From a virus, in IMG/VR virus record IMGVR_UViG_3300035494_000106, positions 1 to 58,704 of that record: DNA of 58,704 nucleotides. One strand, given 5' to 3'. Both the position numbers and the translations under genes were made by a program. Positions 1-58,704 of the stretch are shown here, piece after piece. The notes beneath the pieces are model-generated. The model did no database searches. It had not been told where the DNA came from and saw nothing but the letters and a program-made list of their open reading frames with translations. The first letter of the stretch is position 1; each line of letters starts with the position of its first letter.

Positions 1-127
1 TTTGTATACCGAGTAATTTTGGGTCCGCGATATACGGGACGGGGGTAATACGCTACCCGCGCGCCCTGGTTCCCCCAGCCCCTCCGTCCCCTCGCCCAAA
101 AAGAATTATTTTTCTTCGCCCGTTCCC
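1..127. repeat. Terminal exact repeat, copy 1 (identical to 58578-58704)
   Basis: Hand comparison: tttgtataccgag...cttcgcccgttccc is present at both window ends, 127/127 identical. The length matches a common de Bruijn k-mer, so this is most likely a circular-closure overlap. Confidence 0.95.
64..97 (-). other. Run of C-tracts (G-tracts on the minus strand) in the divergent control region; potential G-quadruplex/i-motif
   Basis: ccc(64-66) ccccc(72-76) cccc(79-82) cccc(88-91) ccc(95-97) with loops of 7 nt or less. The complement reads GGGcgaGGGGacggaGGGGctGGGGG. Confidence 0.4.
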
Positions 128-139
128 TAGATTAGGGAA
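123..139. promoter_or_regulatory. Palindromic box 1, TTCCCTAGATTAGGGAA
   Basis: Perfect 7-bp arms around a 3-nt centre; 79 nt upstream of ATG 218. Confidence 0.7.
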
Positions 140-217
140 GCGCCCTGCAGCGCTTTGCCGGCTTGTGCATAATGGCATCGCCACTTCGGCAAACCGAAAC
201 TTTTTAGGAGAAACACC

Positions 218-784
218 ATGTCCCGTAAGAACTCCAACGCTCGCACTGTCGCCGCTTTCAACATCGCCGCATGGGCCACGCGCCTCGACAGCGCTGCGCT
301 CAACTTCGTGTCCGCTGGCAAAGCTATGCTCGACCTGATGCTCGAGGCGCGCGGCAAGGTCGAGCACGAAACCGCCAAGGAGAAGCTGCAGCACGCATTC
401 GGCCAGGCATACGCGGCCACCTACGGCGTGACCTTCGAAGAAGCCGTAAAAGCGAAGTCTGTACAGAACCGCGTGTCCGACGGTCTGGCCGTACTCAAAG
501 CCGCCAATCTGCCCGACTCGCTGCCGGGCAACATTCAGCAAGCGGCTGCCGCTTGCCGCAAGGCGAACCCGTCTGGCCGCAAGTCGAGCCCACGGCAGCC
601 AGTGGCGAAGGTCGCGGCCGCCGACGTTAACCCGCTCGCGCTGCTCGAGACCGCACTTGAAGCGCTGCGCAAACAAGCGGCCGACAACCAGCCAGCGCTG
701 GAACTGATTGGCGAGCTGGTCGACCTCGCCGGCGATCTGGCCACGGCGCTGGCTGGCGAGACCGAGGATCAAGCCGCTGCTTGA
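218..784 (+). CDS. Hypothetical early protein (188 aa), acidic C-terminus
   Basis: First gene of the + arm. Leader is tttttAGGAGaaacaccATG, and box 2 plus a hairpin follow the gene. Confidence 0.8.
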   Translation: MSRKNSNARTVAAFNIAAWATRLDSAALNFVSAGKAMLDLMLEARGKVEHETAKEKLQHAFGQAYAATYGVTFEEAVKAKSVQNRVSDGLAVLKAANLPDSLPGNIQQAAAACRKANPSGRKSSPRQPVAKVAAADVNPLALLETALEALRKQAADNQPALELIGELVDLAGDLATALAGETEDQAAA

Positions 785-801
785 TTCCCTAGTCTAGGGA
801 A
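785..801. promoter_or_regulatory. Palindromic box 2, TTCCCTAGTCTAGGGAA
   Basis: Starts 1 nt after stop codon 782-784 and is immediately followed by hairpin 803-826. Confidence 0.7.
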
Positions 802-802
802 T

Positions 803-826
803 AGCTAAGCCCCTCGGGGCTTAGCT
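803..826 (+). terminator. Hairpin terminator candidate after gene 218-784
   Basis: agctaagccc-ctcg-gggcttagct, a 10-bp perfect stem followed by actttgtat (weak U-tract). Confidence 0.5.
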
Positions 827-827
827 A

Positions 828-927
828 CTTTGTATGGATAGTACAGATAGCAGCGATGTTATCTTTCCACGCTAAATTAAGGTCTAGCGGAGCTTAATTT
901 AGCTAGATTTATACTATCTATACAAAG
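828..927. repeat. Nested inverted repeats (about 100-nt cruciform/structured-RNA candidate)
   Basis: Outer arms ctttgtatggatagta (828-843) and tactatctatacaaag (912-927), 15/16 complementary. Inner arms gctaaattaag (871-881) and cttaatttagc (893-903), perfect. Confidence 0.7.
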
Positions 928-969
928 TGGCTAAGGTTCGGCGGTAAATCCGCCTAATGTATCCAAGGA

Positions 970-1270
970 TAGTAAAAAGTCGGCGCGGAATAGTAAAAAT
1001 TCCAGAAGGCTTTACTACTCTGCAGGCCGCGTGGTTGCTGGTCTGTAGTAAGAATAGTAAGAATAGTAAAGGAAAAATTGAATACCCCTTAGGGATTTTT
1101 CAGCTAACTGGTTAAGTTAGCGCTGGCGCTCCGTCCCTTAGCGCTAAAATTAGCTTAGCCGCTTCCTAAACCGCCACCGCGTATAGGAGCGTCGAAAAAA
1201 CCCTTTACTATTCTTACTATTTGACTAGAGCCCAGTATCCATGCGGGTTCCAGCGATGCCGACTTTACTA
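970..1270. repeat. Iteron array, nine copies of TAGTAA(A/G)(A/G) in both orientations
   Basis: Plus-strand copies at 970, 991, 1046, 1055 and 1064 (the last three in direct tandem). Minus-strand copies at 1010-1018, 1203-1210, 1211-1219 and 1263-1270. The region is AT-rich and free of ORFs. Confidence 0.75.
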
Positions 1271-1369
1271 TTCCGTTAGCTACTGGGCGCCGTTTCTTTG
1301 CTATTTCGGCCCGAATCACGTGACAACGAGTTTTTTAAAGTTTCTCGGCCGCTTAGGCTTGGAGTTAGC

Positions 1370-1397
1370 TTGCCCGGAGTGCCCATTGTGAGATAAT
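1370..1397 (+). promoter_or_regulatory. sigma70-like promoter candidate (TTGCCC-N16-GATAAT) for the 1502 operon
   Basis: -35 at 1370-1375 and -10 at 1392-1397. The -10 is embedded in hairpin 1379-1403. Confidence 0.3.
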
Positions 1398-1403
1398 GGG
1401 CAC
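1379..1403. promoter_or_regulatory. 9-bp perfect hairpin/operator candidate, gtgcccatt-gtgagat-aatgggcac
   Basis: Seen directly; overlaps the candidate -10. Confidence 0.5.
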
Positions 1404-1453
1404 CTAATCTGTACAAACTGCACCAACGCTAGCATCCCTACCATCCGTGCCAT

Positions 1454-1470
1454 TTCCCTAATCTAGGGAA
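1454..1470. promoter_or_regulatory. Palindromic box 3, TTCCCTAATCTAGGGAA
   Basis: 32 nt upstream of ATG 1502. Confidence 0.7.
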
Positions 1471-1501
1471 TATGCCCGACCAACGCTGAATGGAGCTGAT
1501 C

Positions 1502-1654
1502 ATGACCTATTCGACCTTTGCCGTAGACGTCCTATGCCGCGGCGCGGTGTTCGCCTGCAATGTGGCTGACCAATGCGGCGTGCCTGGCGCCACGATAGCC
1601 AAGTGGCTTTCCCGCCTTAACCTCCGGGCCCGCGCGCAAGAGGTGGCAGCATGA
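1502..1654 (+). CDS. Small HTH-like protein (50 aa; below the ORF-track cut-off)
   Basis: Hand translation MTYSTFAVDVLCRGAVFACNVADQCGVPGATIAKWLSRLNLRARAQEVAA. GGAG lies upstream and the stop overlaps the next start (ATGA at 1651). Confidence 0.5.
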   Translation: MTYSTFAVDVLCRGAVFACNVADQCGVPGATIAKWLSRLNLRARAQEVAA

Positions 1655-1887
1655 TCAAGCTAGCCGCAGTGTGGTCGGCCGCAGTCGTGGCCACGGCGCT
1701 GGCCGCAGTCGCGCTGGCCGTTCGGATCGACGCCATCATGCGACTGGTAAAGGAAGCCGCACGCAAGGGCCCGATCAGCCGCCGGCGGATTGTCCGGCGA
1801 ATCCTGCTAGAACTGGTCGCGCTGGTCGCGCTGTCCGCTGCGCTGGGCGTGTTCGGCGCGTGGGTCTGGCTCGGCTGGACGGCATAA
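1651..1887 (+). CDS. Small membrane protein, two hydrophobic helices
   Basis: AAVWSAAVVATALAAVALAV and LELVALVALSAALGVFGAWVWLGW flank a basic loop. Confidence 0.7.
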   Translation: MIKLAAVWSAAVVATALAAVALAVRIDAIMRLVKEAARKGPISRRRIVRRILLELVALVALSAALGVFGAWVWLGWTA

Positions 1888-1904
1888 CCAAGAGTCGAAA
1901 CCCG

Positions 1905-1921
1905 TTCCCTAATCTAGGGAA
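1905..1921. promoter_or_regulatory. Palindromic box 4, TTCCCTAATCTAGGGAA, with extended arms (cccg...acggg)
   Basis: Intergenic between 1887 and 1987. The flanks lengthen the stem to about 11 bp. Confidence 0.7.
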
Positions 1922-1986
1922 ACGGGTCTGCCGGGCATAGCCTCCCGGCACTGACGAGACAGGCTAACCACAACTGATTGGAGGGC

Positions 1987-2616
1987 ATGATCATGCCTGA
2001 GACACGGGAAATAACCATATACCAGTTCGACGAGCTGAGCGACAAAGCCAAGGAGAAAGCCCGCGAGTGGTACCGCAACGGCCAGCTCGACTACGACTGG
2101 TGGGAGGCCGTCTACGACGACGCCGACAAGATCGCCTCGATCATCGGCATCGACATTGACCGCAAAGACAAGAACACGCCGGCGATCTACTTCAGCGGGT
2201 TCTCGAGTCAGGGCGACGGCGCCTGCTTCGAAGGCTCGTACCGTTACAAGAAGGGCTGGCGTAAAGAGCTGGCCGAGTACGCTCCGCGGATCGGGACCAA
2301 CGCCGACATCTGGCAAATCGCCGAAGCGCTACAAGCCATCCAGGCGCGCCAGTTCTACAAGCTGGAGGCAACCTGCTGGCAGCACGGCCACTACCGGCAC
2401 AGCGGCGGCATGAGCGTCGACGTGGAGCACGCTGACGACCGCTACCGCGACATTGGCGACGCCGAGGACGAGATTCGAGACCAGCTCCGACTATTCGCCG
2501 ACTGGATCTACGGCCGCCTCGAGCAGGAGCACGACTGGCTGACAAGCGACGAGCAGGTCGACGAGGCGATCCGCGCCAACGAATACGAATTTCTCGAAAA
2601 CGGGAGCCTAGCATGA
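1987..2616 (+). CDS. Conserved phage/plasmid-type protein of unknown function
   Basis: GGAGGG RBS; start at ATG 1987 or 1993. Motifs YQFDELSDKAKEKAREWY and FSGFSSQGDGACFEG. The family name is not verifiable here. Confidence 0.7.
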   Translation: MIMPETREITIYQFDELSDKAKEKAREWYRNGQLDYDWWEAVYDDADKIASIIGIDIDRKDKNTPAIYFSGFSSQGDGACFEGSYRYKKGWRKELAEYAPRIGTNADIWQIAEALQAIQARQFYKLEATCWQHGHYRHSGGMSVDVEHADDRYRDIGDAEDEIRDQLRLFADWIYGRLEQEHDWLTSDEQVDEAIRANEYEFLENGSLA

Positions 2617-3002
2617 TCGAAATGAAGACGAGCGAGCTGATTGGGCCGGCGCTGGATTGGGCGGTGGCTATGTCTGAAGGCGCCACCAACCTGTACTTCG
2701 ATACGGTGGCGTGCTGGTGGTTCACCCTCAATGGGGCGGACCGGGTACTGAGTAGCGGCTGGTCAGAGAAGCAGAACTACTGCCCATCGACCGACTGGCG
2801 CTACGGCGGGCCGCTGCTCAAACCGAACCGGATCAGCCTGACGCAAAAGCACTCCGGCTGGGTAATCGCGTGCATCTACGACTCCAATGATGAGCCTACC
2901 CATATGCAACTGGCAGAAGACCCTCTGATCGCCGCCATGCGCTGCCTTTGTGCATCCAAGCTGGGCGACACGGTGCAGGTGCCACAGGAGCTGCTGCCAT
3001 GA
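2613..3002 (+). CDS. DUF2591 (NinX-like) family protein, paralogue A
   Basis: N-terminal ELIGPALDWAVAMSEG is typical of DUF2591 as I recall it. ATGA coupling on both sides. Confidence 0.75.
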   Translation: MIEMKTSELIGPALDWAVAMSEGATNLYFDTVACWWFTLNGADRVLSSGWSEKQNYCPSTDWRYGGPLLKPNRISLTQKHSGWVIACIYDSNDEPTHMQLAEDPLIAAMRCLCASKLGDTVQVPQELLP

Positions 3003-3346
3003 CCACCAAACCAACACACACCACCGTGCGCCGGCGGCACTCCGTCGGCGCCCGCAGAGCTCTGGACAAGGCCAAGCGCGAGCAGCTGGAACGCGAACTG
3101 GCCGACGCACTGGCATCACTGGACACACCAGCCGGCAAGGTCGGACTCCCTAAAGTAGGGAAGCCCCGGATCGTCGTCACGCTGACCGTTCGGCTACTCA
3201 ACGAAGGCGGGCTGCCTCGGCGGTTCGAGTGGACTGCGCCTCCCGGCACGTGGCCGGCTGAGGCCGTCCATCTGGCGAAGTTGGCAGCCCGTAAGGCCGG
3301 GTTCGTCGTCCACGCCCACATCGACACCGAGGAGCGAGTCCTATGA
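2999..3346 (+). CDS. Hypothetical protein (115 aa)
   Basis: ATG 2999 overlaps the stop at 3000-3002. Contains palindromic box 5. Confidence 0.65.
   Translation: MTTKPTHTTVRRRHSVGARRALDKAKREQLERELADALASLDTPAGKVGLPKVGKPRIVVTLTVRLLNEGGLPRRFEWTAPPGTWPAEAVHLAKLAARKAGFVVHAHIDTEERVL
3146..3162. promoter_or_regulatory. Palindromic box 5, CTCCCTAAAGTAGGGAA (inside ORF 2999-3346)
   Basis: The only copy that is fully intragenic; it encodes LPKVGK. Confidence 0.5.
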
Positions 3347-3744
3347 CCAGCATCGAAGTGAAAACCGCCGACCTGATCGGGCCGGCGCTGGACTGGGCGG
3401 TGGCCATGGCCGAGGGTGCGAAGCCTGAGAGGCCACATGACGGTCAAGTAAGTTTCGGCAGCGTCCATCTGCTATGCGGCAGTGATCAGGAGCGTGGATT
3501 TCACGCCCCGTTCTACTCGCCGTCCACCGACTGGAGCCAGGGCGGGCCGCTGATTGCGCGAGAGCGCATCGGACTGTGGCCCACTTCCAATGGCTATTTT
3601 GCTGAGAAGCGACACTTCGGTCGCCATCACAAGGCAGGGCGCAGTTACGGCGAAGGCCCCACATCCTTGATCGCCGCCATGCGCTGCCTCGTCGCCGCCA
3701 AGCTGGGCGACACGGTGCAGGTGCCCGAGGAGCTGCTGCCATGA
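3343..3744 (+). CDS. DUF2591 (NinX-like) family protein, paralogue B
   Basis: DLIGPALDWAVAMAEG plus a C-terminus nearly identical to paralogue A (AAMRCL..KLGDTVQVP.ELLP). Confidence 0.75.
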   Translation: MTSIEVKTADLIGPALDWAVAMAEGAKPERPHDGQVSFGSVHLLCGSDQERGFHAPFYSPSTDWSQGGPLIARERIGLWPTSNGYFAEKRHFGRHHKAGRSYGEGPTSLIAAMRCLVAAKLGDTVQVPEELLP

Positions 3745-3947
3745 TCGCCGCCCTGCTGATGTACGTCTGCGCCAGCACCGTGCTGGACAGTTGCGAGGTG
3801 TTCGTCGACCGCACGTGGGAAGGCCCGGCAGCTGCCGCAGAGTGTGAGGACTACCTGCGTCGGACCCGGAACAAGGTGCCGCTGCTCTACCGCCAGCGCG
3901 GCGAGCACGTGCTTTACGTCTGTGACGTGCAATCGGTTGGAGAATAG
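3741..3947 (+). CDS. Hypothetical protein (68 aa)
   Basis: ATGA coupling at 3741; a hairpin follows the gene. Confidence 0.6.
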   Translation: MIAALLMYVCASTVLDSCEVFVDRTWEGPAAAAECEDYLRRTRNKVPLLYRQRGEHVLYVCDVQSVGE

Positions 3948-3960
3948 TTGCCTCGAACCG

Positions 3961-3983
3961 CAGGGCCAGGCATACTGGCCCTG
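3961..3983 (+). terminator. Hairpin terminator candidate after gene 3741-3947
   Basis: cagggccag-gcata-ctggccctg, a 9-bp perfect stem 14 nt after the stop. The downstream U-tract is poor. Confidence 0.4.
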
Positions 3984-4037
3984 TAAGTTCAGTTTACAGA
4001 GGGCTTACCGGCAAGCACGGGCTTGCCAGTGCGCCTT

Positions 4038-4054
4038 CTCCCTACTTTAGGGAA
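4038..4054. promoter_or_regulatory. Palindromic box 6, CTCCCTACTTTAGGGAA
   Basis: 33 nt upstream of ATG 4087. The centre is the complement of boxes 5/7/9. Confidence 0.7.
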
Positions 4055-4086
4055 CGCACAGCCTCAACTTTTCAGGAGACACCATC

Positions 4087-4569
4087 ATGCGCAAAATCAC
4101 CGAAGCCGCCATTCAGGCGTTCCTCGCCGGCGAGGAGTTCAGCCGCGACAACACTCGTGTCGAGGTCCGTCCGTTCAAGGGCGAACTCGGGGACCAAGTC
4201 ATTCTGGTTCTGCACGGGAACCCGATCGCTGCCTACCTCGAGGACGTTGGACCGACCAGCCTGCGGGTGTGCGACGGCAACCACCAGACCCGCACCACGA
4301 AGGAGCGCCTCAACGGCCTGCCCGGCGTACAGGTACACCAGAAAGCCGGCCAGTGGTACCTCAACGGCACGGCGTGGGACGGCAGCTGGACCCACGTCGG
4401 CGGGGTGATGATCATCAAGCGTGTTGGCGACCGCCGCTACCGCGTCGAGTACCCGCGCAGCGCCGCTCGGGAGCCGATGGTGTTCCCCAGCCGCAAGGCC
4501 GCCCGCGTGTTCGCCGAGGTGGAAGCCGCAAACCACGGGTACGACCTGATCGCCGAGGCCGAAGCATGA
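4087..4569 (+). CDS. Hypothetical protein (160 aa); the C-terminus carries an FPSxxAAxxFAEVE motif
   Basis: Consensus leader caacttttcAGGAGacaccatcATG. Distant member of the small-paralogue family. Confidence 0.8.
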   Translation: MRKITEAAIQAFLAGEEFSRDNTRVEVRPFKGELGDQVILVLHGNPIAAYLEDVGPTSLRVCDGNHQTRTTKERLNGLPGVQVHQKAGQWYLNGTAWDGSWTHVGGVMIIKRVGDRRYRVEYPRSAAREPMVFPSRKAARVFAEVEAANHGYDLIAEAEA

Positions 4570-4820
4570 ACGCCAAGCTGGAACACCTGCAGAAGCGCGA
4601 GATAGCGCGGGCGATCGCGCAGGTAGAAAAAGCCACGGGTCGGGGCGCTATTGCGGAAGCCGTGCAGTACGCAGGCCAGCTGATACACCAGGAAAACAAA
4701 CGCTCGGACCGCACGCTGGGCGCGGCCATGCAGAAAGCCTTGGCCGAGCGCGAAGACCTGCTGGAGCTGATGCGCCAGCTGAACGACGCGACGCGCAAGA
4801 AGATTGACTCCCTAAAGTAG
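4566..4820 (+). CDS. Hypothetical coiled-coil protein (84 aa)
   Basis: ATGA coupling at 4566; the stop lies inside box 7. Confidence 0.7.
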   Translation: MNAKLEHLQKREIARAIAQVEKATGRGAIAEAVQYAGQLIHQENKRSDRTLGAAMQKALAEREDLLELMRQLNDATRKKIDSLK

Positions 4821-4824
4821 GGAA
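4808..4824. promoter_or_regulatory. Palindromic box 7, CTCCCTAAAGTAGGGAA
   Basis: Contains the TAG stop (4818-4820) of ORF 4566-4820; 12 nt upstream of ATG 4836. Confidence 0.6.
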
Positions 4825-4835
4825 TGGAGCCGACA

Positions 4836-5387
4836 ATGACCGAACAAGCCGAACAGAACGCCCCGGGAATCAGCAGCGAGGAGCTGGCACGCCTGACCGC
4901 CGAGTTCCTCAACCGTGGGTGCCAGATCGCCGTCTGTGCGCAGGGAGAGACCGCCCTGCCCTACGGCGTCGCCGCCGCACGCAAAACCGAGACCGCCGCG
5001 CGCAACGCCCGCACAGAGGGGCTGCGCCGCAAGGCCGAGAAGGCCGACGCGCTGGACGTGGAAGCGATCCGCAAGGCGCTGGACGCCGACGACAAGTCGC
5101 TGATGCCGAGGATATCCAACGAACGCCTCAAGCGGTTGGTACACGCCTATTTCAAGGACGACGCCCGGGCGCAGGCGCTACTGCCGGTGAACCGTACGGT
5201 CGCAGCCGAGCGCCGAGCGCAGGAAGCGATCAAGCGAATCGTGGCGCTGCGCGACAGCGGCATGGTGGGGATCAAGAGCATCGCCGCCGCGCTCGACCTA
5301 CAGTACGACTACGTGGCCAAGCTGAACACCCAGCACCAGCTGGGAATCATGAAGGCTTCGCCCGGATTCAGGAGCAAGAAGGCATGA
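4836..5387 (+). CDS. Hypothetical protein (183 aa)
   Basis: GGAG at 4826-4829, 6 nt before ATG 4836. The ORF track offers an alternative ATG at 4824. Confidence 0.75.
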   Translation: MTEQAEQNAPGISSEELARLTAEFLNRGCQIAVCAQGETALPYGVAAARKTETAARNARTEGLRRKAEKADALDVEAIRKALDADDKSLMPRISNERLKRLVHAYFKDDARAQALLPVNRTVAAERRAQEAIKRIVALRDSGMVGIKSIAAALDLQYDYVAKLNTQHQLGIMKASPGFRSKKA

Positions 5388-5647
5388 TCACTCGAACCTC
5401 ATTCAACAAGCGATTGCTGGATAACATCGGCGAAGCCATGCGCGTGGCTGCCTACAACTCGCGGATGTGGTCGGCTGCTGCCGGCTGCGCCTCGAAGGGC
5501 ACGGCCTACGTGCCGAACGCCAGGGGCCGCCTGATGATGCGCGTGGACCACGCCCGGGGAGAGCCGCAGGCGTTCCAGTTTTACGACAAGCACCAGCGCA
5601 ACATCACCAGCATGGTGCTCGAAGCGCTGCGCCGGGGGCGACCATGA
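5384..5647 (+). CDS. Hypothetical protein (87 aa)
   Basis: ATGA coupling at 5384. This is the coding-like part of ORF 4919-5647. Confidence 0.65.
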   Translation: MITRTSFNKRLLDNIGEAMRVAAYNSRMWSAAAGCASKGTAYVPNARGRLMMRVDHARGEPQAFQFYDKHQRNITSMVLEALRRGRP

Positions 5648-5979
5648 CCCCGCTCCAGCGCTGGGCGGTATCGAACGCGTTCGCCCGCGCGCTGGTGATC
5701 ACGTGGAGTTGCGCGCCGTTCGGACCGATCAAGTTCGTCAAGTGGTTCATCCGCTGGAAGTCGTTGGGACGGGTGGCCGTCGACCTGAACTTGGCGTGCG
5801 ACAAGCCATCCGACGCTGGCTACCTGTTCGCCCCGCGCATGGTCGAAGTGTACGGGTACGAGCGAGCTCGGCGGGTGGCTCTCGCCACGGTGAGGATCGA
5901 AGGCAACATAGCGGCTGGGCACCCGTTCGACTTGGGCGTGCTGATGTGGTTCGTCCACCACGCCCGGGCGGTGATGTGA
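5644..5979 (+). CDS. Hypothetical protein (111 aa)
   Basis: ATGA coupling at 5644. Confidence 0.65.
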   Translation: MTPLQRWAVSNAFARALVITWSCAPFGPIKFVKWFIRWKSLGRVAVDLNLACDKPSDAGYLFAPRMVEVYGYERARRVALATVRIEGNIAAGHPFDLGVLMWFVHHARAVM

Positions 5980-6296
5980 TGGCCTACGCAACGGCCGACA
6001 TGGCCGCCCGGCTGTTCGAGCTCGGGTTCTCCAGTATGCGGATCGGCCTGGACCGCGAGGAGGGGTTCTGCAGGCTACGCAACGGCCGGACGGAGACGAT
6101 CATCTACACCTGGGACAAGCGCGACCGGACCTCGCTCGAGGTGCCGCCTGCCGAGGAGGTGTTCTGGGTCGCCAGTTCGGCCGGCGTGTCGAAGGCCGGC
6201 GGGCTCGAGGTGGTCGTGCCGGCCAGTGAGCGGTGCCCGGACCCGGTGACCTGTTTTGTAAGTGCGGAGGTGCGAGGATGGAAACGCCAGACCTGA
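5979..6296 (+). CDS. Hypothetical protein (105 aa)
   Basis: TGATG coupling at 5977-5981. Confidence 0.6.
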   Translation: MAYATADMAARLFELGFSSMRIGLDREEGFCRLRNGRTETIIYTWDKRDRTSLEVPPAEEVFWVASSAGVSKAGGLEVVVPASERCPDPVTCFVSAEVRGWKRQT

Positions 6297-6574
6297 TGCC
6301 GCCCGGCTGGGAGCGTGGGGACCGTGGGCTGACCACCTGCGCGCACGACTTGGTGTGGACCCGGCGCGACAGCAGCCTGAGCAAGATGGTGCAGCGGGTG
6401 CAGTTCGACTTGCACCAGGGTGGGTACGTGTTCGGCGTGGTCGGCGTAGACGCGACTTATAGTCGACCTCGGCCGAACGTTGCGCCCGCCACCTACAGGT
6501 TCAACCCAATGTCACCAGTGTTCCCTTCGCCGCAAGCAGCAGCTGTGTGGGCCACGATCGAGGGGCTGACATGA
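6278..6574 (+). CDS. Small paralogue-family protein (98 aa)
   Basis: N-terminal PPGWERGD; C-terminal VFPSPQAAAVWATIEG. Confidence 0.65.
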   Translation: METPDLMPPGWERGDRGLTTCAHDLVWTRRDSSLSKMVQRVQFDLHQGGYVFGVVGVDATYSRPRPNVAPATYRFNPMSPVFPSPQAAAVWATIEGLT

Positions 6575-6630
6575 GCAGGGGACAGCAGCCCACGACACCG
6601 TTCGGCGGCTGACAACCAGTTGGAGATTGC

Positions 6631-6657
6631 TTGCTACCGCCGTGGGTAGTGTAAACT
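6631..6657 (+). promoter_or_regulatory. Promoter candidate with a TGTAAACT box (-10-like TAAACT at 6652-6657)
   Basis: TTGCTA (6631-6636) lies 15 nt upstream, or CTTGCT at 16 nt. Intergenic, upstream of the MoxR gene. Confidence 0.35.
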
Positions 6658-6689
6658 AGGCTTACATTTTCAGTAACACCAACCGCAAC

Positions 6690-6706
6690 TTCCCTACTCT
6701 AGGGAA
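6690..6706. promoter_or_regulatory. Palindromic box 8, TTCCCTACTCTAGGGAA
   Basis: 28 nt upstream of ATG 6734 and downstream of the TGTAAACT box at 6650-6657. Confidence 0.7.
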
Positions 6707-6733
6707 TCAACCAACGATGTTCAGGAGAACACC

Positions 6734-7894
6734 ATGAAAGTCAACGACCTGACCGCTATCACCGTCGCCCTCTACAACGCGAACCGCACCGGCATGTACT
6801 GGGGTTCGCCAGGCATCGGCAAGTCGGACAGCTTCCGCGCCGCCGCTGAGCAGATCAAGAACTCGCTGGGCCTGACTGGTCCGGTGCTCGAGCGTCACCA
6901 GATCAAGCCGTTCCTCGCACGTGGTGGCGATATCCGCACGACCTTCGGCCTGTTCGACCTGCGCCTGTCGCAGATGGACCCGGTGGAAGTGGGCGGCCTG
7001 CCGCGCGAGAACCGCACCAATGGCACGATGGAGAAGCTGCCGCCAAGCTGGTTCGCCCACACCCTGCGCGACGACCTGCCTGACTTCGGCATCCTGCTGC
7101 TGGAGGAGCTGCCGTCCGCACCAATGAGCGTGCAGACCGCGGCGTACCAGATCACCCTGGACAAGGTGATCGAGGACTACAAGTTGAAGGAAGGCTGGGC
7201 CACGTTCGCTGCGGGCAACCGCCTGACCGACGGCGGCCAGTACTTCAAGATGCCGAACGCATTGGCCAACCGCCTGTGCCACATCGACGTCGAGTCGGAC
7301 GTGGACAGCTGGCGCCAGTGGGCACTGGAACACAACATCGACCATAGCCTGATCGCGTTCATCAGCTTCCGCTCGGACCTGCTGAACACCACCGAGGACC
7401 ACGTGAAGAACAAGGGCAAGGGCTTTGCCTTCGCCACCGAGCGCCAGTGGGCTGCGGTCAACGACTTCCTGACCAACAACCCAGGCGCCGACGCGTCGGT
7501 GATGCACGCTGTGGTGAGCGGCCTGGTGGGCTCCGGCCCGGCCGCCGAGTACATCGGGTTCCGTGACGTGTGGAACAACATGCCGAGCATCGACGGCATC
7601 CTGATCGAGCCGGACACTGCGATCCTGCCTGAGGACGCGGCCACCCAGTTCGCCGTGATGACTGCGCTGGCGGCACGTGCGACCTATGACAACCTCGCCC
7701 AGTGCCTGCGCTACACCGACCGTCTGATGGCCAAGGGTCGCCCGGAGATGGCCGTGCTGTTCATCAAGGACATGCAGATTCGCCAGAACCTGGCATTCGA
7801 ACAGGCCAAGGCAGAGGGCCGGGCGTTCCAGCGCGCTGAGGCGTCGCCGGCGTACACGATGTGGGCCTCGCGCAACGTCCAGCTGTTTGGCTGA
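6734..7894 (+). CDS. MoxR-type AAA+ ATPase
   Basis: Walker A GSPGIGKS and Walker B ILLLEEL. Consensus leader ttcAGGAGaacaccATG. Paired with a downstream VWA protein. Confidence 0.9.
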   Translation: MKVNDLTAITVALYNANRTGMYWGSPGIGKSDSFRAAAEQIKNSLGLTGPVLERHQIKPFLARGGDIRTTFGLFDLRLSQMDPVEVGGLPRENRTNGTMEKLPPSWFAHTLRDDLPDFGILLLEELPSAPMSVQTAAYQITLDKVIEDYKLKEGWATFAAGNRLTDGGQYFKMPNALANRLCHIDVESDVDSWRQWALEHNIDHSLIAFISFRSDLLNTTEDHVKNKGKGFAFATERQWAAVNDFLTNNPGADASVMHAVVSGLVGSGPAAEYIGFRDVWNNMPSIDGILIEPDTAILPEDAATQFAVMTALAARATYDNLAQCLRYTDRLMAKGRPEMAVLFIKDMQIRQNLAFEQAKAEGRAFQRAEASPAYTMWASRNVQLFG

Positions 7895-8199
7895 TGGCCA
7901 GCGAGCGGAAGAAGCGGGCCAAGCAAATGGCCCGCCTCGGCTGGGTGTGGGAGCCGAGCTGGAACAGCTGGGTATTCTTCGACCTGTGGTCCAACCCGGC
8001 AGCGTACATCCAGTATCGGGCGGGACAGAAAGACTGGCAGCTTGGCGAGGTGTTGCACCCTGACGGGGTTCCTGAGTGGGGCGAGGCGTTCGGCAGTCCC
8101 CTGGCCGCAGCTGTATTCGCTGAAGTGCAGCTCGCCGACAGGCTGGCCGCCGTGCGGAAGGAGATTGAGGGCTGCAACAGGGAGCGCATTGGACTATGA
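7894..8199 (+). CDS. Small paralogue-family protein (101 aa)
   Basis: TGATG coupling. LGWVWEPS ... EAFGSPLAAAVFAEVQ. Confidence 0.7.
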   Translation: MASERKKRAKQMARLGWVWEPSWNSWVFFDLWSNPAAYIQYRAGQKDWQLGEVLHPDGVPEWGEAFGSPLAAAVFAEVQLADRLAAVRKEIEGCNRERIGL

Positions 8200-8570
8200 A
8201 CGCCCAAAAAACACCGACCCAACTTCGCCGTGAGCACGAAGCCCGCACCGGAATGCGGGCGAACATGAGAACGTTCGGGTTCGAGGCGGTCAAGTACCGC
8301 CTCACTGGTGAGCCGACACGGTTCCGTGAGCAGACGGCGCGGGGCGAAGGAGGGTTCTTCATCCAGCGCACAATAGACAACATGTGGCGCATCGGCTGGC
8401 AGTCCGGCCGGCCGGTAGTCGGGGTCAAGGGAGGGCAGTGGTACCCCGAGCGCCCAGTCGAGTCACCATTATTTCCCGGGCCAGTAGCCGCAGCGCTGTG
8501 GTTCGAGGTGGAGAAATCAAATGGAACGATCCGTTTTAGACAGAGCCAAGACGCAGCTCGTACTCAATGA
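8196..8570 (+). CDS. Small paralogue-family protein (124 aa)
   Basis: ATGA coupling. ...GGQWYPERPVESPLFPGPVAAALWFEVE. The tail overlaps the VWA gene start by 50 nt. Confidence 0.65.
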   Translation: MNAQKTPTQLRREHEARTGMRANMRTFGFEAVKYRLTGEPTRFREQTARGEGGFFIQRTIDNMWRIGWQSGRPVVGVKGGQWYPERPVESPLFPGPVAAALWFEVEKSNGTIRFRQSQDAARTQ

Positions 8571-9723
8571 GCCGTTCTACGCCACGATTCTACTCAAGCT
8601 GGAACTGGTTGAGTGTGAGTCGGTGCCGGGGCTCGGCCCGCTGTGGCTGGCTGCCACCGACGGGCAGCACCTGTTCGTCAACCCGAAGAACTTCGAGCAG
8701 CTGTCCGTGGCCAAGGCCAAGGGCGTGCTCAAGCACGAGGTGATGCACGTCGCCCAGCTCCACCCGTTCCGCGGGCAGGGCAAGGAGCAGGTGCGCTGGA
8801 ACAAGGCGACCGACGACGTGATCAACCCGATGATCATCGACGAGGGCGGCGAACTACCTGACGGCGTGCGCTCCGGTGTGCGCGGCATGTCAGCCGAGGA
8901 GCGTTACAAAGACCTGCCGCCTGAGCCGCCGGGACAGGGAGGTGGCGGCTCTGGTCCGCACGACCCGCTGGGGCACGACGTCCTGCCGGCGCCGGACAAG
9001 AGCCAGGCTGCGGTGGACAAGACCAAGGCGATGATCGCCCAGGCTGCGTCGGTAGCGAAGGCACGCGGCAAGCTGCCCGAGTCGCTGCGCTCGGAGATCG
9101 ACAAGGTGCTCAAGCCCCGCGTCGACTGGAAGGAGCAGCTGCGCCAGTGGCTGACCGAGGCGTCGCAGGCGGACTACTCGTTCCGCCGACCGAACCGTCG
9201 CTTCATCACCGGCGACGATCCGATCTACCTGCCGTCGATGATGGGTGACAACCAGGCGATGGACACGCTGGTCGTGGTGCTGGATACCTCTGGCTCCATC
9301 ACGATGGCTGAGCTGTCGCAGGGGCTGGGCGAAATCTGCGGCGCCGTGGCTGACGTGTCTCCGAAGCGGTTGGTGGTAGCCTACTGCGACGCAAAGGTGC
9401 AGCACCACGACGTGTTCGACCAGCCGCAGGGTGCAGAGGTAGCCAAGTCGTTCGAGCACCACGACGTGTTCGACCAGCCGCAGGGTGCAGAGGTAGCCAA
9501 GTCGTTCGAGCGCCACGGCGCGGGCGGCACGAACATGGTGGCGGCCCTCAAGTGGGTCAACCGCAACTACCCGACGGCCAAGGGGGTGATCGTCTGGACC
9601 GACGGCGAGACTCCGTTCGGCAACGAGGAGGACTACGAGTACCCCGTGCTGTGGGCGATTACCTCCCCTCGTATCGAAGCGGACTGGGGGACAACGCTGC
9701 ACGTTGTCGTCGGCGATGACTAA
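8521..9723 (+). CDS. Metallopeptidase-like (HExxH) + von Willebrand A domain protein (DUF2201-type partner of MoxR)
   Basis: HEVMH zinc motif, MIDAS-like VVVLDTSGS and GGTN. Contains the 54-bp duplication. Confidence 0.9.
   Translation: MERSVLDRAKTQLVLNEPFYATILLKLELVECESVPGLGPLWLAATDGQHLFVNPKNFEQLSVAKAKGVLKHEVMHVAQLHPFRGQGKEQVRWNKATDDVINPMIIDEGGELPDGVRSGVRGMSAEERYKDLPPEPPGQGGGGSGPHDPLGHDVLPAPDKSQAAVDKTKAMIAQAASVAKARGKLPESLRSEIDKVLKPRVDWKEQLRQWLTEASQADYSFRRPNRRFITGDDPIYLPSMMGDNQAMDTLVVVLDTSGSITMAELSQGLGEICGAVADVSPKRLVVAYCDAKVQHHDVFDQPQGAEVAKSFEHHDVFDQPQGAEVAKSFERHGAGGTNMVAALKWVNRNYPTAKGVIVWTDGETPFGNEEDYEYPVLWAITSPRIEADWGTTLHVVVGDD
9403..9510 (+). repeat. Perfect 54-bp tandem duplication (x2), in frame within the VWA gene
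   Basis: 9403-9456 = 9457-9510. Encodes HHDVFDQPQGAEVAKSFE twice. Confidence 0.95.
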
Positions 9724-10006
9724 GTGGCAGCCGCTGCACTCGGCGTTCCCAGGTGATACGGCGCAGGTGCTCAAGTACCTGCTGCCGAACACGCTGGTGA
9801 ACGCCACGGCGGTTGCGAACGCGCCAACCCACGACGATCCGCTGGGTACAAAGCCGAAGCTGACGGCGGCATACAGGCCGAGCTTGTCCGGGGCGCCGAG
9901 ACTGCAGTTCAAGGTGTTCGACAGGCATACGCCAGAGCTCGAGCCCGAGGCGATGGAGGTGTACCTGTACGTCGAGTGGCCAGAGGTATTCAGGAGGGCG
10001 CCATGA
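9716..10006 (+). CDS. Hypothetical protein (96 aa)
   Basis: ATG 9716 overlaps the VWA stop. The ORF track offers a TTG start at 9704. Confidence 0.55.
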   Translation: MTKWQPLHSAFPGDTAQVLKYLLPNTLVNATAVANAPTHDDPLGTKPKLTAAYRPSLSGAPRLQFKVFDRHTPELEPEAMEVYLYVEWPEVFRRAP

Positions 10007-10269
10007 TCGCCGGCTGGGTGGCCCTCAAGGAAGGGTACTGCCGGGCCAAGCTGGAAGTCGGCGCCAATGGGCGGCCGCACATACCGAAGTTCGACCGGAT
10101 GCACGCGCCGCACGTCATGCCTGACAGCTGGGGTGGTGGATGGGTAGCCCTCGACGGTTCGCCGGAGGCCAGGCCATTCCCCAACCGACTGGTGGAGGGC
10201 GTGGTGTTTCCCACAGCAGAGGCTGCGATGGTCGCGGCCGAGGTAGAACTTGCCAATCGGCAACCATAG
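10003..10269 (+). CDS. Small paralogue-family protein (88 aa)
   Basis: AGGAGGG RBS and ATGA coupling. IAGWVALKEG ... VVFPTAEAAMVAAEVE. Confidence 0.7.
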   Translation: MIAGWVALKEGYCRAKLEVGANGRPHIPKFDRMHAPHVMPDSWGGGWVALDGSPEARPFPNRLVEGVVFPTAEAAMVAAEVELANRQP

Positions 10270-10277
10270 TGTAAACT
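10250..10277 (+). promoter_or_regulatory. sigma70-like promoter candidate, TTGCCA-N16-TAAACT
   Basis: -35 at 10250-10255 and -10 at 10272-10277, preceded by TG. Upstream of gene 10330. Confidence 0.5.
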
Positions 10278-10286
10278 CGGTATACA

Positions 10287-10303
10287 TTCCCTAAAGTAGG
10301 GAG
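10287..10303. promoter_or_regulatory. Palindromic box 9, TTCCCTAAAGTAGGGAG
   Basis: 27 nt upstream of ATG 10330. Begins about 10 nt after the -10-like TAAACT at 10272-10277. Confidence 0.7.
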
Positions 10304-10329
10304 TAGCCGCAACTTTTCAGGAGTAAGAC

Positions 10330-11202
10330 ATGAACGCATACGACACTTCGAACATCCATGCCCGTGTGATGTTGGTCAATCTGAACATCGCTCAGTGGTC
10401 GGCCCGCAAGATCGACAAGCGCGCCTCAGCCGAGGTGGCTGCGGCCAACAAGGCAGAGTCCCGCAACGGCGCGTACTACAAGTCATTAGTAGAAGGCGGC
10501 TCGCTCGAGAAGATCAAGCGCCTGGTCACCCAAGCCCGCGCCGAGCACTACCACCGCACTCTGCCATGGTCTGACGCCGGGCCCCGCGTGTTGGCGAACA
10601 CTGGCTACCTCGAGTACGCCCAGAAGATGGGCGAGTTCGGGCAGCAGTTCGACAGCCTGGTCGCTCAGTTCCTCAAGGAGTACCCGCTGATGAAGCAGGA
10701 GGCCAAGCGCCTGCTGGGCAACCTGTTCGACGAAGCGGACTACCCGGACCTGCAGCGTGTCGCCGACAAGTTCTCGTTCAAGACCAGTGTGACGCCGCTG
10801 CCGATCGGCGACGACTTCCGCTGCGACCTGGGCCAGGAAGAAGTCGACCGCATCCGCGCAGAGATCACGGCCACCACGACCAGCGCTGTGCAGCAGGCGG
10901 TGACCGAGGCGTACGAGCGGATCAGCAAGGTGGTCGACTCGTACATCGACCGGCTGGCCGGCGCCGAGACTGTGTTCCGCGACAGCCTGGTGGGCAACGC
11001 CCGCGATCTGGTGGATATCCTGCCGTCGCTGAACATCACGAACGATCCGAAGCTGGCCGAGCTGACCAGCCGACTGCAGAGCAAGCTGTGCGCCCACGAC
11101 CCGGACGCTCTGCGCAACAACCAAACCGTGCGCAAGGCCACCTATGAGGAGGCCGTGTCGATGCGCAAAGACCTGCTGGATTTCTTTGGGGGTGCGATGT
11201 GA
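10330..11202 (+). CDS. DUF3150-like protein (290 aa)
   Basis: Consensus leader caacttttcAGGAGtaagacATG. The family assignment is from memory of N-terminal LNI.QWSARK-type proteins that accompany MoxR/VWA pairs. Confidence 0.75.
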   Translation: MNAYDTSNIHARVMLVNLNIAQWSARKIDKRASAEVAAANKAESRNGAYYKSLVEGGSLEKIKRLVTQARAEHYHRTLPWSDAGPRVLANTGYLEYAQKMGEFGQQFDSLVAQFLKEYPLMKQEAKRLLGNLFDEADYPDLQRVADKFSFKTSVTPLPIGDDFRCDLGQEEVDRIRAEITATTTSAVQQAVTEAYERISKVVDSYIDRLAGAETVFRDSLVGNARDLVDILPSLNITNDPKLAELTSRLQSKLCAHDPDALRNNQTVRKATYEEAVSMRKDLLDFFGGAM

Positions 11203-11537
11203 GTCACCACGAATCGAACGACGAGCTCACCCGCCGGATGGTCCGGCTGGAGACCCGGGTCAGCAACGCACTGCGCTGCGTGGGGATTGTCCCCGGCGCC
11301 ACGCCGGCGGACGCCACGACTGGCCGGGCAATCTACGACGTGGAGGGCCCGCAAGGGCTCCCCGCGGTGTACGTCACCACGCCTGAGGTAACGATCGGGG
11401 AAGTCCTCGCTTGTGCAACACGTGGCGGCAACGGCAGCAGCACCGACGTGACAGTCGTGCTGTGCAACCAAGTGGTGGGCGTACTCCGCGTCCACGGAAA
11501 ACCCAGAGGGCATAAGCCATGCAAACAGAAAAACTGA
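11199..11537 (+). CDS. Hypothetical protein (112 aa)
   Basis: GTG start overlapping the stop (GTGA). Confidence 0.6.
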   Translation: MSHHESNDELTRRMVRLETRVSNALRCVGIVPGATPADATTGRAIYDVEGPQGLPAVYVTTPEVTIGEVLACATRGGNGSSTDVTVVLCNQVVGVLRVHGKPRGHKPCKQKN

Positions 11538-11890
11538 TCGCCACCGACGCACCGTCCAAAGAAGAACTGATGGCCGAGGCCAAGGCCGAAGCAACCAAGG
11601 CGCTTGAGAGCGGCGCGTCGTTCGTGCTGGTCACCGTGGCCCGGAACGAGTCAGGCTCCCAGATCGGCATGATCGCCGCCGTCGACCAGCGCGAGCTGTA
11701 CGAGGCAGCCGTGGCGCTGACCACTGCGGTGGGTGCCATCTCGATCGGCGACGCTGGCATGTCCGCCCTGCCCGCTGACGCAGCTCAGACCTTGGCCCTG
11801 ATCTCAGGCATCCGCTCGCTGCAGAGCTACGCCACCGACGCAGTCAATGCCGCTGCCTCGGTGCAGCCGACCACTGAATCCAAGCACTGA
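11519..11890 (+). CDS. Hypothetical protein (123 aa)
   Basis: ATG 11519 with an AGAGGG RBS. Confidence 0.7.
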   Translation: MQTEKLIATDAPSKEELMAEAKAEATKALESGASFVLVTVARNESGSQIGMIAAVDQRELYEAAVALTTAVGAISIGDAGMSALPADAAQTLALISGIRSLQSYATDAVNAAASVQPTTESKH

Positions 11891-11892
11891 CC

Positions 11893-12177
11893 GTGCGCCG
11901 GAGGCTCAGCAAACAGCACTGCCGGTGCACCTCGAAGACGAAGTGCGGCCGGCGGTTCAAGGGGTTCCCGGGCGTGACGCCTTGCCCTCACTGCGGAGCC
12001 GCCGGCAGGTTGGACAAGTGGGCGGACAAGAAGCCCTGGAAGAAACGCGACAGGCTCTGCTACTGCAGCGCCTATGAATGGGGCGCGTACGGGTCGCCGC
12101 ACCGTGAGGGGTACGGCGCCTGCTACTACGCACCGAGGAGGGACGATGACACCCAAGAAACCGATGCTGGCGTGTGA
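11893..12177 (+). CDS. Cys-rich putative zinc-ribbon protein (94 aa)
   Basis: CRC..KC and CPHC pairs, GC-rich third codon positions, GTG start. Overlaps the ligase start by 32 nt. Confidence 0.5.
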   Translation: MRRRLSKQHCRCTSKTKCGRRFKGFPGVTPCPHCGAAGRLDKWADKKPWKKRDRLCYCSAYEWGAYGSPHREGYGACYYAPRRDDDTQETDAGV

Positions 12178-13048
12178 CGCGCCGGCCGTTCTCAACTTCC
12201 CGCTGGTCGTCAGCCCTAAGCTGGACGGCATTCGCTGCACAGTCTGGCCAGGCGAGCCGATGACCCGGGCGCTCAAGCCAATCCCCAACAAGTTCGTGCG
12301 TGAGACACTGGCCACCGCCCGGCTGCCGGCTGTGTTCGACGGCGAGCTGGTGGTAGGTGAGGCGAACCACCCCGATGTGTACCGCCGCACTACTAGTGGG
12401 ATCATGTCGCACGAGGGCCAGCCCGACTTCACCTTCTGGGTGTTCGACTACGTGCCAGGGGTTACCAACGGACTTATCGAGAACACCTTCGAGGCCAGGT
12501 ATGCGCGGCTCACCAACCAGACCGGCGCGATCCAGGCAGTGCACCCCTGGTTTAAGGTGCTGCCTCAGACCGTGGTGCACAACCGCGACCAGCTGGATGG
12601 GTACGAGCAGCAGATGCTGGCCGAGGGGTTCGAGGGGATCATCGCCCGCAGCCTCGACGCCCCATACAAGCACGGTCGGTCGACCCCGAAGGAAGGCTAC
12701 CTGCTGAAGGTGAAGCGGTTCGTGGATACCGAGGTCGAGGTGGTCGGTGTCGAGGAGCTGATGCACAACGCCAACGAGGCGACGATCAACGAGTTGGGCC
12801 ACACCCAGCGCAGCAGCGCCATGGCAGGGCTCGTGCCGGCCGGCGTACTGGGTGCGCTGATCTGCCGCTGGGGCGCGCACACGTTCAAGGTCGGCACCGG
12901 GTTCACGGCTGAGCACCGGGCTGAGCTGTGGCAGAAGCGCGACGCGCTGATCGGCAGCCTGGCGAAGATCAAGTACTTCGAGCAGGGGATGAAAGACTTG
13001 CCTCGCCACCCGGTGTGGTTGGGGTTCCGCGACGGGAGGGACATGTGA
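12146..13048 (+). CDS. ATP-dependent DNA ligase
   Basis: Adenylation motif SPKLDGIR (KxDG), EGIIA and LLKVK motifs. GGAGGG RBS before ATG 12146. Confidence 0.9.
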
Positions 13049-13395
13049 TGAACAAGCAAGAGCACGAAGCCCTGCGGCTGTGTGTCGAAGCGCTCGACCA
13101 GCTGCTGCCGTACCTGGCCAAGGTGCCGGCCGACGTCGGGCTGCTGAACGATGCGCTGGTGGCAGCACGGCCGCTACTCAAGCAGGAGCCAGCCCCGGCG
13201 CAGACCGCCCCGCAGGGCAAGTTCGCCATCGGCGACCGCGTGAAGAAGACCAGTGGCAGCGAGTGGGTCGGCCGCGTCTGCGGCACCTACTCCACACCCC
13301 TGACCCCGGAAGGCTACGCCGTGGAGAGCGAAGCGCACGCCGGCAGTGTGCAGATTTACCCGGACAAGGCGCTGGAAGCTGCGCCGGAGGAGTGA
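13048..13395 (+). CDS. dfrB: R67/DfrB-type (type II) dihydrofolate reductase homologue with a 58-aa N-terminal extension
   Basis: Residues 59-110, [52 protein letters not shown], match 36/52 positions of R67 DHFR as remembered, including GSVQIYP. Confidence 0.8.
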
Positions 13396-58577: not shown

Positions 58578-58704
58578 TTTGTATACCGAGTAATTTTGGG
58601 TCCGCGATATACGGGACGGGGGTAATACGCTACCCGCGCGCCCTGGTTCCCCCAGCCCCTCCGTCCCCTCGCCCAAAAAGAATTATTTTTCTTCGCCCGT
58701 TCCC
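58578..58704. repeat. Terminal exact repeat, copy 2 (identical to 1-127)
   Basis: Same 127 nt as the window start. Confidence 0.95.

Follow-up and report, generated by a model that had tools for sequence, protein, structure and literature searches.

A palindromic box confined to the early arm

IMG/VR virus record IMGVR_UViG_3300035494_000106, analyzed here over its full length of 58,704 nucleotides (the window), carries among its early genes nine copies of the 15-nt palindrome TCCCTANNNTAGGGA (TCCCTA-N3-TAGGGA), hereafter the box. Comparison with related genomes indicates that this repeat is real, strongly selected, and clade-wide, and that it is a recognition signal of the early genes. Bases 1-127 recur exactly at 58578-58704, a 127-bp terminal duplication of the kind left by circular-assembly overlap, so the genome is ~58,577 bp in a circularized assembly. 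With a G+C content of 64%, it is organized into a plus-strand early and replication arm (1 to ~28 kb) and a minus-strand structural arm (~28 to 58.5 kb), and the divergent early/late control region, which includes the first box, spans the assembly junction. The phage is apparently a lytic podophage from an uncultured clade of which Pseudomonas phage Rollin is a distant relative. Almost all of its early open reading frames (ORFs) were orphans in Pfam and PHROGs searches.

A first-pass annotation, made from the sequence alone, had listed nine boxes restricted to the first 10 kb. An exact search finds the same nine, starting at 124, 786, 1455, 1906, 3147, 4039, 4809, 6691, and 10288 (the earlier starts were one lower, in the coordinates of a 17-mer), all of them inside the first 10.3 kb, the early 17% of the genome; the remaining 48 kb contain no exact box. 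No single-mismatch copy is present in the window, and 100 dinucleotide-preserving shuffles yielded 0 boxes. Allowing up to two mismatches added only a site at 20687 (TCCCTACGCGAGGGT), where 0.74 would be expected by chance. Isolated half-sites outside the boxes numbered 7 on both strands versus 11 ± 3 expected and are neither enriched nor depleted, this difference being not significant. The shuffles, together with conservation in relatives, rule out an artifact of chance or composition.

Relatives were collected by protein-anchored searches of IMG/VR, JGI, ENA, and Logan assemblies, which returned seven further lineages with the early module (L003/L030, L004/L037, L034-36, L038, L039, L040, and L041/42). 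The box is identical in every relative recovered: the eight lineages contain 62 distinct boxes in ~145 kb and not one copy with a single arm mismatch. The same box is present in L038 and L039 despite g6 orthologues that are only 47 to 51% identical to that of the window. At orthologous positions the box is retained while its flanks have diverged, and the center triplet differs even between relatives that are 96% identical. The number of boxes per genome varies among close relatives (9, 11, 12, or 14). The box provides a clean regulon signal for the early genes of this uncultured podophage clade.

Outside the clade, near and distant nucleotide searches of GenBank phages returned no close relative. 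Rollin matches at 69% nucleotide identity over part of the head genes, and its portal is 50% identical at the amino acid level; it has the replication and head modules in common with the window but not the early 13 kb, and its genome contains neither the box nor a hammerhead ribozyme of the kind described below. Rollin has a palindrome of its own, the 23-bp AAAGGTAG(T/C)AA(C/G)TT(A/G)CTACCTTT, which is present in four copies in its AT-rich early control region (L001 1-500) and is unlike the box. An exact-pattern scan of IMG/VR found multiple copies in one related contig only, and the matches among 185k genomes were isolated single ones attributable to chance, which pointed neither to a host nor to a host regulon. 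The 15-mer TCCCTAAAGTAGGGA does occur ~60 nt upstream of an ATG in a multicopy insertion sequence-like repeat of a Trueperaceae metagenome-assembled genome (L060, L061, L071, L083, and L084). Given its unrelated AT-rich flanks, this occurrence is probably a coincidence.

Boxes at gene boundaries and near early promoters

As the first-pass annotation had described, eight boxes occupy gene boundaries, and the remaining one falls within an ORF, the conserved 2999-3346. Box 1 (124-138; center GAT) is in the divergent early/late intergenic region and ends 79 nt upstream of the g1 start codon (ATG 218) and 25 nt upstream of a conserved -10-like element, TGTGCATAATGG (164-175). It has orthologues in L030, L034, L040, and L041, and in all relatives it is upstream of its -10 element, ending at about -41 of the TGTGCATAATGG promoter. 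Box 2 (786-800; GTC) starts 1 nt past the g1 stop codon (782-784) and ends 1 nt before an 11-bp stem that resembles an intrinsic terminator (802-827); its orthologues are at L003 669, L034 3944, L040 7746, and L041 7299. Box 3 (1455-1469; ATC) is in the 5' leader of g2 (50 amino acids, ATG 1502), ~50 nt downstream of the promoter-like TTGCCC-16-GATAAT (1370-1397), and the g2 orthologue is preceded by a box in every relative. Box 4 (1906-1920, plus strand; ATC) makes up the distal 6 bp and the triloop of stem III of a hammerhead ribozyme.

Box 5 (3147-3161; AAG) is the intragenic copy. It encodes LPKVG in a variable linker of g6, and L003 and L004 retain all four of its synonymous third positions (4/4). 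L039 retains the arms, with the peptide PSLG in place of PKVG; in L038 the site is degraded and expanded, and it is absent from the homologue P0005. This retention of synonymous sites and of the arms argues for selection on the nucleotide sequence itself. The earlier suggestion that selection acts on a two-fold symmetric site or a hairpin rather than on coding holds, and conservation in relatives strengthens it.

Box 6 (4039-4053; CTT) is in the leader of g9 (ATG 4087), ~45 nt downstream of the -10-like TGTAAGTT (3982-3989), with orthologues at L003 5512, L004 3389, L034 7708, and L040 11795. The segment 3982-3999 is itself a near-palindrome, TGTAAGTTCAGTTTACA, which is kept in L004, reads as the -10-like TGTAAGTT on one strand and as TGTAAACT on the other, and comes after a GGGCCAG...CTGGCCC hairpin; it resembles a GacA box, TGTAAG-N6-CTTACA. 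Box 7 (4809-4823; AAG) supplies the g10 stop codon with its TAG (4818-4820) and ends 12 nt upstream of the g11 start codon (ATG 4836); its orthologues are at L003 6427, L004 4191, L034 8490, and L040 12577. Box 8 (6691-6705; CTC) is in the leader of an AAA-ATPase gene (ATG 6734), 33 nt downstream of the promoter-like TTGCTA...TGTAAACT (6631-6657), and has orthologues at L003 8471, L004 7105, L034 10598, and L040 14685. Box 9 (10288-10302; AAG) starts 10 nt past the -10 hexamer of the promoter TTGCCA-16-TAAACT (10250-10277), at about +4 of the predicted transcript, and ends 27 nt upstream of ATG 10330. Its orthologues are at L003 12555, where the center is flipped to CTT, L004 11126 (GAG), and L040 17941.

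Sigma70-like promoters conserved in relatives are predicted at 164-175, 1370-1397, ~3982, 6631-6657, 10250-10277, and 22204. Those upstream of boxes 8 and 9 had been noticed in the first-pass annotation and are indeed kept in relatives. Each of the five early promoters (5/5, first 10.3 kb) has a box within about -55 to +65, whereas no box accompanies the similar one at 22204, which belongs to the replication module. The distance from box to start codon ranges from 12 to 79 nt. The early leaders are A/C-rich and G-poor, and those at 190-217, 4060-4086, 6712-6733, and 10308-10329 have a common (C)GAAACTTTTCAGGAG-like sequence upstream of the ATG.

Frozen arms, fixed spacing, and a symmetric center

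The clade-wide consensus is W-TCCCTA-V-W-B-TAGGGA-W, and the spacing between the arms is exactly 3 nt in all exact copies. The invariant arm, which had been given as 7 nt, is in fact 6 nt long, the 7th position in the window being T or C on the left and A or G on the right; ~60% of copies have 7-bp arms and the others have 6-bp arms. Nor does the center vary freely, as had been stated: its middle base is A or T in 9/9 boxes of the window and in 60/62 boxes of the clade. The inner flank is T in 0 of 124 half-sites (T never stands first in the center, nor A third), and the outer flank is A or T in 104 of 124. Three positions (outer flank, inner flank, and center) thus have preferences that are themselves two-fold symmetric.

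The box is also independent of orientation. The center triplets fall into seven complementary types, among which AAG and its complement CTT dominate at about equal frequency even though the genes all run one way, and the orthologues at 10288 (AAG) and L003 12555 (CTT) have opposite orientations. At the 7th position, the combination C..A occurs no less often than T..G, its reverse complement. The AAG/CTT parity, the flips, and the frequency of C..A relative to T..G together argue against strand-specific selection of the RNA type, both for the loop and for the 7th pair. When transcribed, the box folds into an RNA hairpin with a 6-bp stem and a 3-nt loop (about -7 kcal/mol). At stand-alone boxes the helix hardly extends into the flanks (mean, 0.9 versus 0.55 extra pairs, a marginal difference), which counts in favor of a duplex DNA site.

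Two further patterns bear on how the boxes evolve. The 7th-position flank shifts in concert within a genome, being T..A in the window and A..T in L003, L038, and L039. In addition, three expanded boxes have the structure TCCCCA/TCC-TA + xTA + AGGCCNAATCGGCCT + ATx + TAGGGA, with a second small palindrome nested in the center; two are in hammerhead stem IIIs of L041 (8427-8515 and 8790-8880) and one is in the g6 ORF of L038 (2015-2060). The occurrence of the same odd variant at two nonhomologous sites, along with the concerted change at the 7th position, implies that boxes have been copied between sites. In all three expanded copies (3/3), where the arms are parted by the 21-nt inserted hairpin, an arm is defective (TCCCCA or TCC-TA), which suggests that selection on the arms may lapse once the 3-nt spacing is lost.

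One box forms the tip of a predicted hammerhead ribozyme

Box 4 is embedded in a predicted self-cleaving RNA, which we regard from its sequence and fold as a bona fide type II hammerhead. The match to Rfam RF02276 covers 1893-1968 on the plus strand, between g3 (stop 1885-1887) and g4 (ATG 1987), and scores 46.2 bits against a gathering score of 37 (E = 3e-6, or 5e-7 in a second scan). An E-value scan of positions 1-12000 gave no second hammerhead and, around the stand-alone boxes, no other ribozyme or RNA family. The flanks of box 4 read GAGUCGAAAC...CUGACGAGACAG.

The element begins with the 3' strand of stem II and GAAA (1893-1900, with GAAA at 1897-1900), followed by stem III (1901-1927) and the GUC triplet (1926-1928). 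Cleavage is predicted after C1928, 8 nt downstream of box 4. Stem I follows (1929-1950, TGCCGGG/CCCGGCA), then the core CUGACGA (1951-1957) and GAC (1958-1960), and the tail AGGCUA (1961-1966) pairs as a pseudoknot with UAGCCU of loop I (1938-1943). The features that define the family are thus all present at 1893-1968, namely, an above-threshold score, the catalytic core (CUGANGA, GAAA, and NUH), closed stems I and III, an open stem II, and the pseudoknot.

Thirteen homologous copies share this core, except that one has CUGAGGAU and one has GCC instead of GUC in the stem II strand. Stem I and the pseudoknot covary in relatives (CGGTAGG/CCTGCCG with GGTCAA; CGCAGG/CCTGCG with GATCA). The inner 5 to 7 bp of stem III covary as well across the 13 copies (CCCGT/ACGGG, CCACA/TGTGG, CGCAAA/TTTGCG, and CGCTGAA/TTCAGCG), whereas the distal 6 bp, which are the box arms, do not change in any of them. 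Given that the inner stem covaries and the box arms are frozen, pairing alone is insufficient to account for the arms; their sequence is constrained, and something must read it. The adjoining hammerhead helix thus serves as an internal control against a pairing-only explanation for a 15-bp site that is frozen over deep divergence.

Across the clade we found 19 hammerhead cores, 17 with an exact box on stem III and 2, both in L041, with an expanded, degraded derivative. Predicted cleavage falls 6 to 10 nt 3' of the box, and relatives have two or three hammerheads flanking single small genes. In four intergenic regions, the order is hammerhead with its box, a second box, a Shine-Dalgarno sequence, and the ATG; a second box directly after a hammerhead, 27 to 30 nt before the next ATG, is seen in four lineages. 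At ~70% of its sites, the box stands alone.

Polycistronic RNAs of phages and prophages are known to contain hammerheads beside their genes (Perreault et al. 2011, PMC3088659), and those described here resemble the type II elements (PMC3088659, RF02276) in core, three-stem architecture, open stem II, pseudoknot, and intergenic location. They differ in that stem III is lengthened by an invariant 15-nt palindrome that also stands alone. This link between hammerhead and box is the most interesting new element, and we found no description of such a shared palindrome in the literature searched.

A possible operator or stoperator-like function

The reading that we tentatively favor has a dimeric DNA-binding protein regulating the early transcription units through the box, a two-fold symmetric site that would serve as an operator or a stoperator-like element. 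Invariant arms around a variable center are typical of a dimer that reads two major grooves, and the combination of these features with two-fold symmetry gives the box the properties of a duplex DNA site read by a dimer. Typical RNA-hairpin recognition leaves a conserved loop and a covarying stem; the box has the opposite properties, and they are incompatible with strand-specific reading of the loop. Many near-identical sites at promoters and in intergenic spaces, as expected of an operator set, are likewise present (nine sites, eight of them at boundaries, with one near each of the 5/5 early promoters).

Under this proposal, a dimeric sequence-specific protein, either phage-encoded or a conserved host factor, would bind all of the boxes on double-stranded DNA and thereby control the early genes as a block. 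Binding might repress initiation at the promoters (boxes 1 and 9) and could present roadblocks to elongation at the leader, intercistronic, and intragenic boxes. Where a hammerhead fills the intergenic space, the site would be tolerated only at the tip of a ribozyme hairpin, stem III.

The stoperators of mycobacteriophage L5 offer a precedent for many near-identical intergenic sites far from promoters (PMC9283540). In L5 and other cluster A phages, more than 20 near-identical short sites for gp71, at promoters and inside transcription units, are thought to block both initiation and elongation (PMC9283540). Those sites are 13 bp, asymmetric, bound by a monomer, aligned in one orientation, and spread over the whole of a temperate genome (PMC9283540). 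The boxes, in contrast, are perfect palindromes that occur with either orientation of the center under one-way transcription, and they occupy the early 17% of an apparently lytic podophage; they do not follow the L5 pattern of an asymmetric site whose orientation tracks transcription. If a DNA-binding regulator does read them, they would constitute a palindromic, early-restricted counterpart of the mycobacteriophage stoperators in a lytic Gram-negative phage.

Several observations weigh against this interpretation. Boxes 2, 4, 5, and 7 (4/9) are not near any predicted promoter, and the distance between box and promoter, about -50 to +50, varies in a way that is unusual for classical operators. 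Phage repressor specificities usually diverge fast, and invariance of an operator at ~50% protein identity is itself unusual. That 19/19 hammerheads have a box or a derivative, and that the hammerhead-box-Shine-Dalgarno-ATG layout recurs four times, would be explained more naturally by a role in RNA. A cognate binding protein was likewise not found: Pfam and PHROGs searches of the early ORFs gave no DNA-binding family except for a marginal MerR-like match (E = 0.009) in g2, the 50-amino-acid product of which has a helix-turn-helix-like sequence. Its AlphaFold model, two helices at a mean predicted local distance difference test (pLDDT) score of 69, is of low confidence and uninformative. The g2 homologues found are all at least 84% identical, and we regard g2 as a weak candidate for the reader of the box. 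The g6 product combines an arginine-rich N terminus with the intragenic box, and its model (pLDDT, 79) had no significant match in the Protein Data Bank (PDB). The first-pass suggestion of an operator set is therefore the one that we favor for the box family as a whole, while the binding protein that it called for did not emerge from these searches.

A possible role for the box hairpin in early RNA

The hammerhead raises the alternative that the box acts as RNA, its hairpin being bound by a conserved RNA-binding protein or endoribonuclease of the phage or host and marking early transcripts for cutting, stability, or translational control. We consider this explanation the main rival, somewhat less likely than the DNA-level one. 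Box 4 and the boxes of 16 hammerheads in relatives are certainly transcribed and folded as parts of stem III, and every hammerhead of the clade has a box or a derivative of it. The link to the hammerhead is solid on sequence grounds, and at least some boxes probably act in folded RNA beside a processing site. The box could then mark the 3' end of the upstream cleavage product, or a bound protein could modulate folding of the ribozyme. A second box just after the hammerhead, as seen in four lineages, fits a downstream RNA that needs its own copy after cleavage.

Transcription of the other boxes is also readily accommodated, as predicted sense transcripts include each of boxes 2 to 9, whether in a leader, at a stop codon, or ahead of a terminator, and the hairpin is reasonably stable at -7 kcal/mol. 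Hairpins near the start of a transcript stabilize bacterial mRNAs, and box 9, at +4, would be so placed. In contrast, box 1 and two boxes of L003 are upstream of a conserved -10 element and may be untranscribed, and the distance to the start codon (12 to 79 nt) is not constant. It is rare for a regular 6-bp A-form stem to be read by its sequence while the loop is disregarded. The loops AAG and CUU are interchangeable and flip between orthologues; loop length is constant and no stable loop motif is favored; and at the 7th position a C.A mismatch is at least as common as a U.G wobble. The earlier proposal that the boxes are RNA hairpins marking processing sites is thus literally true of box 4, which is part of a ribozyme stem, and unproven for the eight stand-alone boxes.

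A bolder version unites the two kinds of site: one early or host protein that binds box RNA might gate hammerhead cleavage through stem III and also set the fate of all early mRNAs. Although improbable in our estimate, such an arrangement would provide the first natural protein-responsive hammerheads, set within a phage-wide RNA regulon. More generally, an RNA-level function would link self-cleaving ribozymes to a protein-recognized hairpin and be relevant to the purpose of phage hammerheads, a long-standing question. The nine boxes and the ribozyme define exact targets for mutagenesis.

The lambda nut boxB is likewise a short CCCU...AGGG hairpin in an A/C-rich early leader. It differs from the boxes in its conserved GNRA-like pentaloop, in being present twice per genome rather than 9 to 14 times, and in being paired with boxA; here the loops are variable and the flanks contain no GCTCTT-like boxA, so a lambda-type nut site does not describe them.

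Copying between sites and other rival explanations

The evidence of exchange between sites allows a third interpretation, in which the box is a self-propagating or recombination-linked repeat. As the core of a small cassette (box plus leader or hammerhead) homogenized by gene conversion or illegitimate recombination, it might delimit exchangeable early-gene modules and have little direct regulatory role. Box number and position do differ among close relatives (9 to 14 per genome), and L034, L040, and L003 contain extra hammerhead-gene units. The genome-wide concerted change of the 7th-position flank, the expanded variant shared by the L041 stem IIIs and L038 g6, which implies copying between sites, and the (C)GAAACTTTTCAGGAG common to leaders 3' of boxes all fit this scheme. 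It would, however, explain the spread of the box and not its frozen sequence. The deep invariance and the absence of decaying copies point instead to purifying selection on each copy, and the intragenic box of g6 is kept at synonymous sites. The 15-bp unit is also far shorter than known mobile palindromes, and Pfam and PHROGs scans of the ORFs gave no transposase-like or RAYT-like gene. On balance, an explanation by self-propagation appears unlikely.

The closest precedents for such repeats are the promoter early stem-loops (PeSLs) of T4 (PMC2839356, PMC4122927) and the repetitive extragenic palindromic (REP) elements, which have in common with the boxes repeated stem-loops that bound small early or accessory genes, variable number and position, and copying between sites. 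PeSLs are composite promoter-terminator motifs of ~50 to 100 bp in which variation is tolerated, whereas the boxes are 15 bp and exact. REP elements are imperfect 20- to 40-bp palindromes mobilized by RAYT (HUH) transposases; the boxes are perfect, and no associated transposase was found.

We consider it highly improbable that, as also proposed in the first-pass annotation, the boxes extrude from supercoiled DNA as hairpin promoters for a virion-delivered, single-subunit RNA polymerase (RNAP) of the N4 type. The geometry does match that of N4 early promoters, with a 6- to 7-bp stem and a 3-nt loop at the early genome end (PMC4496689), and residues 14-349 of a 2,019-amino-acid virion protein match the N4 virion RNAP profile phrog_2206 (E = 5.6e-13). 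Like N4 promoters, the boxes are short inverted repeats that have a 3-nt spacer and occupy the early end of a podophage genome, and the giant protein has an N-terminal segment in common with gp50. This match, however, covers only profile positions 85-443 of 3,406, an N-terminal, nonpolymerase segment. Beyond this segment come Pro/Ala/Val/Glu repeats, an HExxH motif, and, at the C terminus, a DarB-like domain. The protein has no match among PDB sequences, and no RNAP family was detected in any ORF of at least 340 amino acids. N4 promoters need a conserved strand-specific loop (-11G and -10G), -8G, and a start fixed 8 nt from -8 (PMC4496689). The loops of the boxes, in contrast, vary, flip strand, and have pyrimidine centers on either strand, so the hairpin geometry is present while the strand-specific loop and a virion protein with a polymerase domain are not. 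Copy number differs as well (9 to 14 versus 3 in N4), one box is in an ORF and one in a ribozyme, and conserved, host-type sigma70-like promoters already serve the early genes.

The giant protein (38928-44987, minus strand) appears on its own account to be a polyvalent protein, with PAVEP-type repeats, an HExxH motif (LAHERGHAG), a weak LPD39 match, and a DarB-like C-terminal 750 amino acids. Its central region has only one real homologue.

Other candidates fit poorly in palindromy, size, variable loop, or gene content and were set aside: a CRISPR-repeat mimic (Racr), a CsrA/RsmA site, RNase III sites, a recombinase core site, a protelomerase site, and a T7-like promoter (suggested by the resemblance of TAGGGA).

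Additional features of the early arm

Two gene products merit mention. A dihydrofolate reductase domain of the R67 type (type II) is clearly present in ORF 13048-13395 on the plus strand (PF06442, E = 7.5e-24). The g11 product (4836-5387, plus strand) has a match to the SutA RNAP-binding domain that is weak and below cutoff (E = 0.004), a possible hint of an early protein that binds host RNAP.

The interval 830-1450, between the g1 terminator and the second early promoter, is AT-rich and noncoding. It contains iterons of the form AATAGTAA(G/A)AA and the inverse TTTACTATT, together with many TTAGC/GCTAA palindromes, such as the KorB/parS-like CTTAGCGCTAA near 1137-1147. The corresponding AT-rich iteron region of L003, upstream of its second early promoter, includes two boxes (1065 and 1292), and its iterons covary with those of the window (AATAGCAAGAAT). 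This interval may be an origin or a partition-like region.

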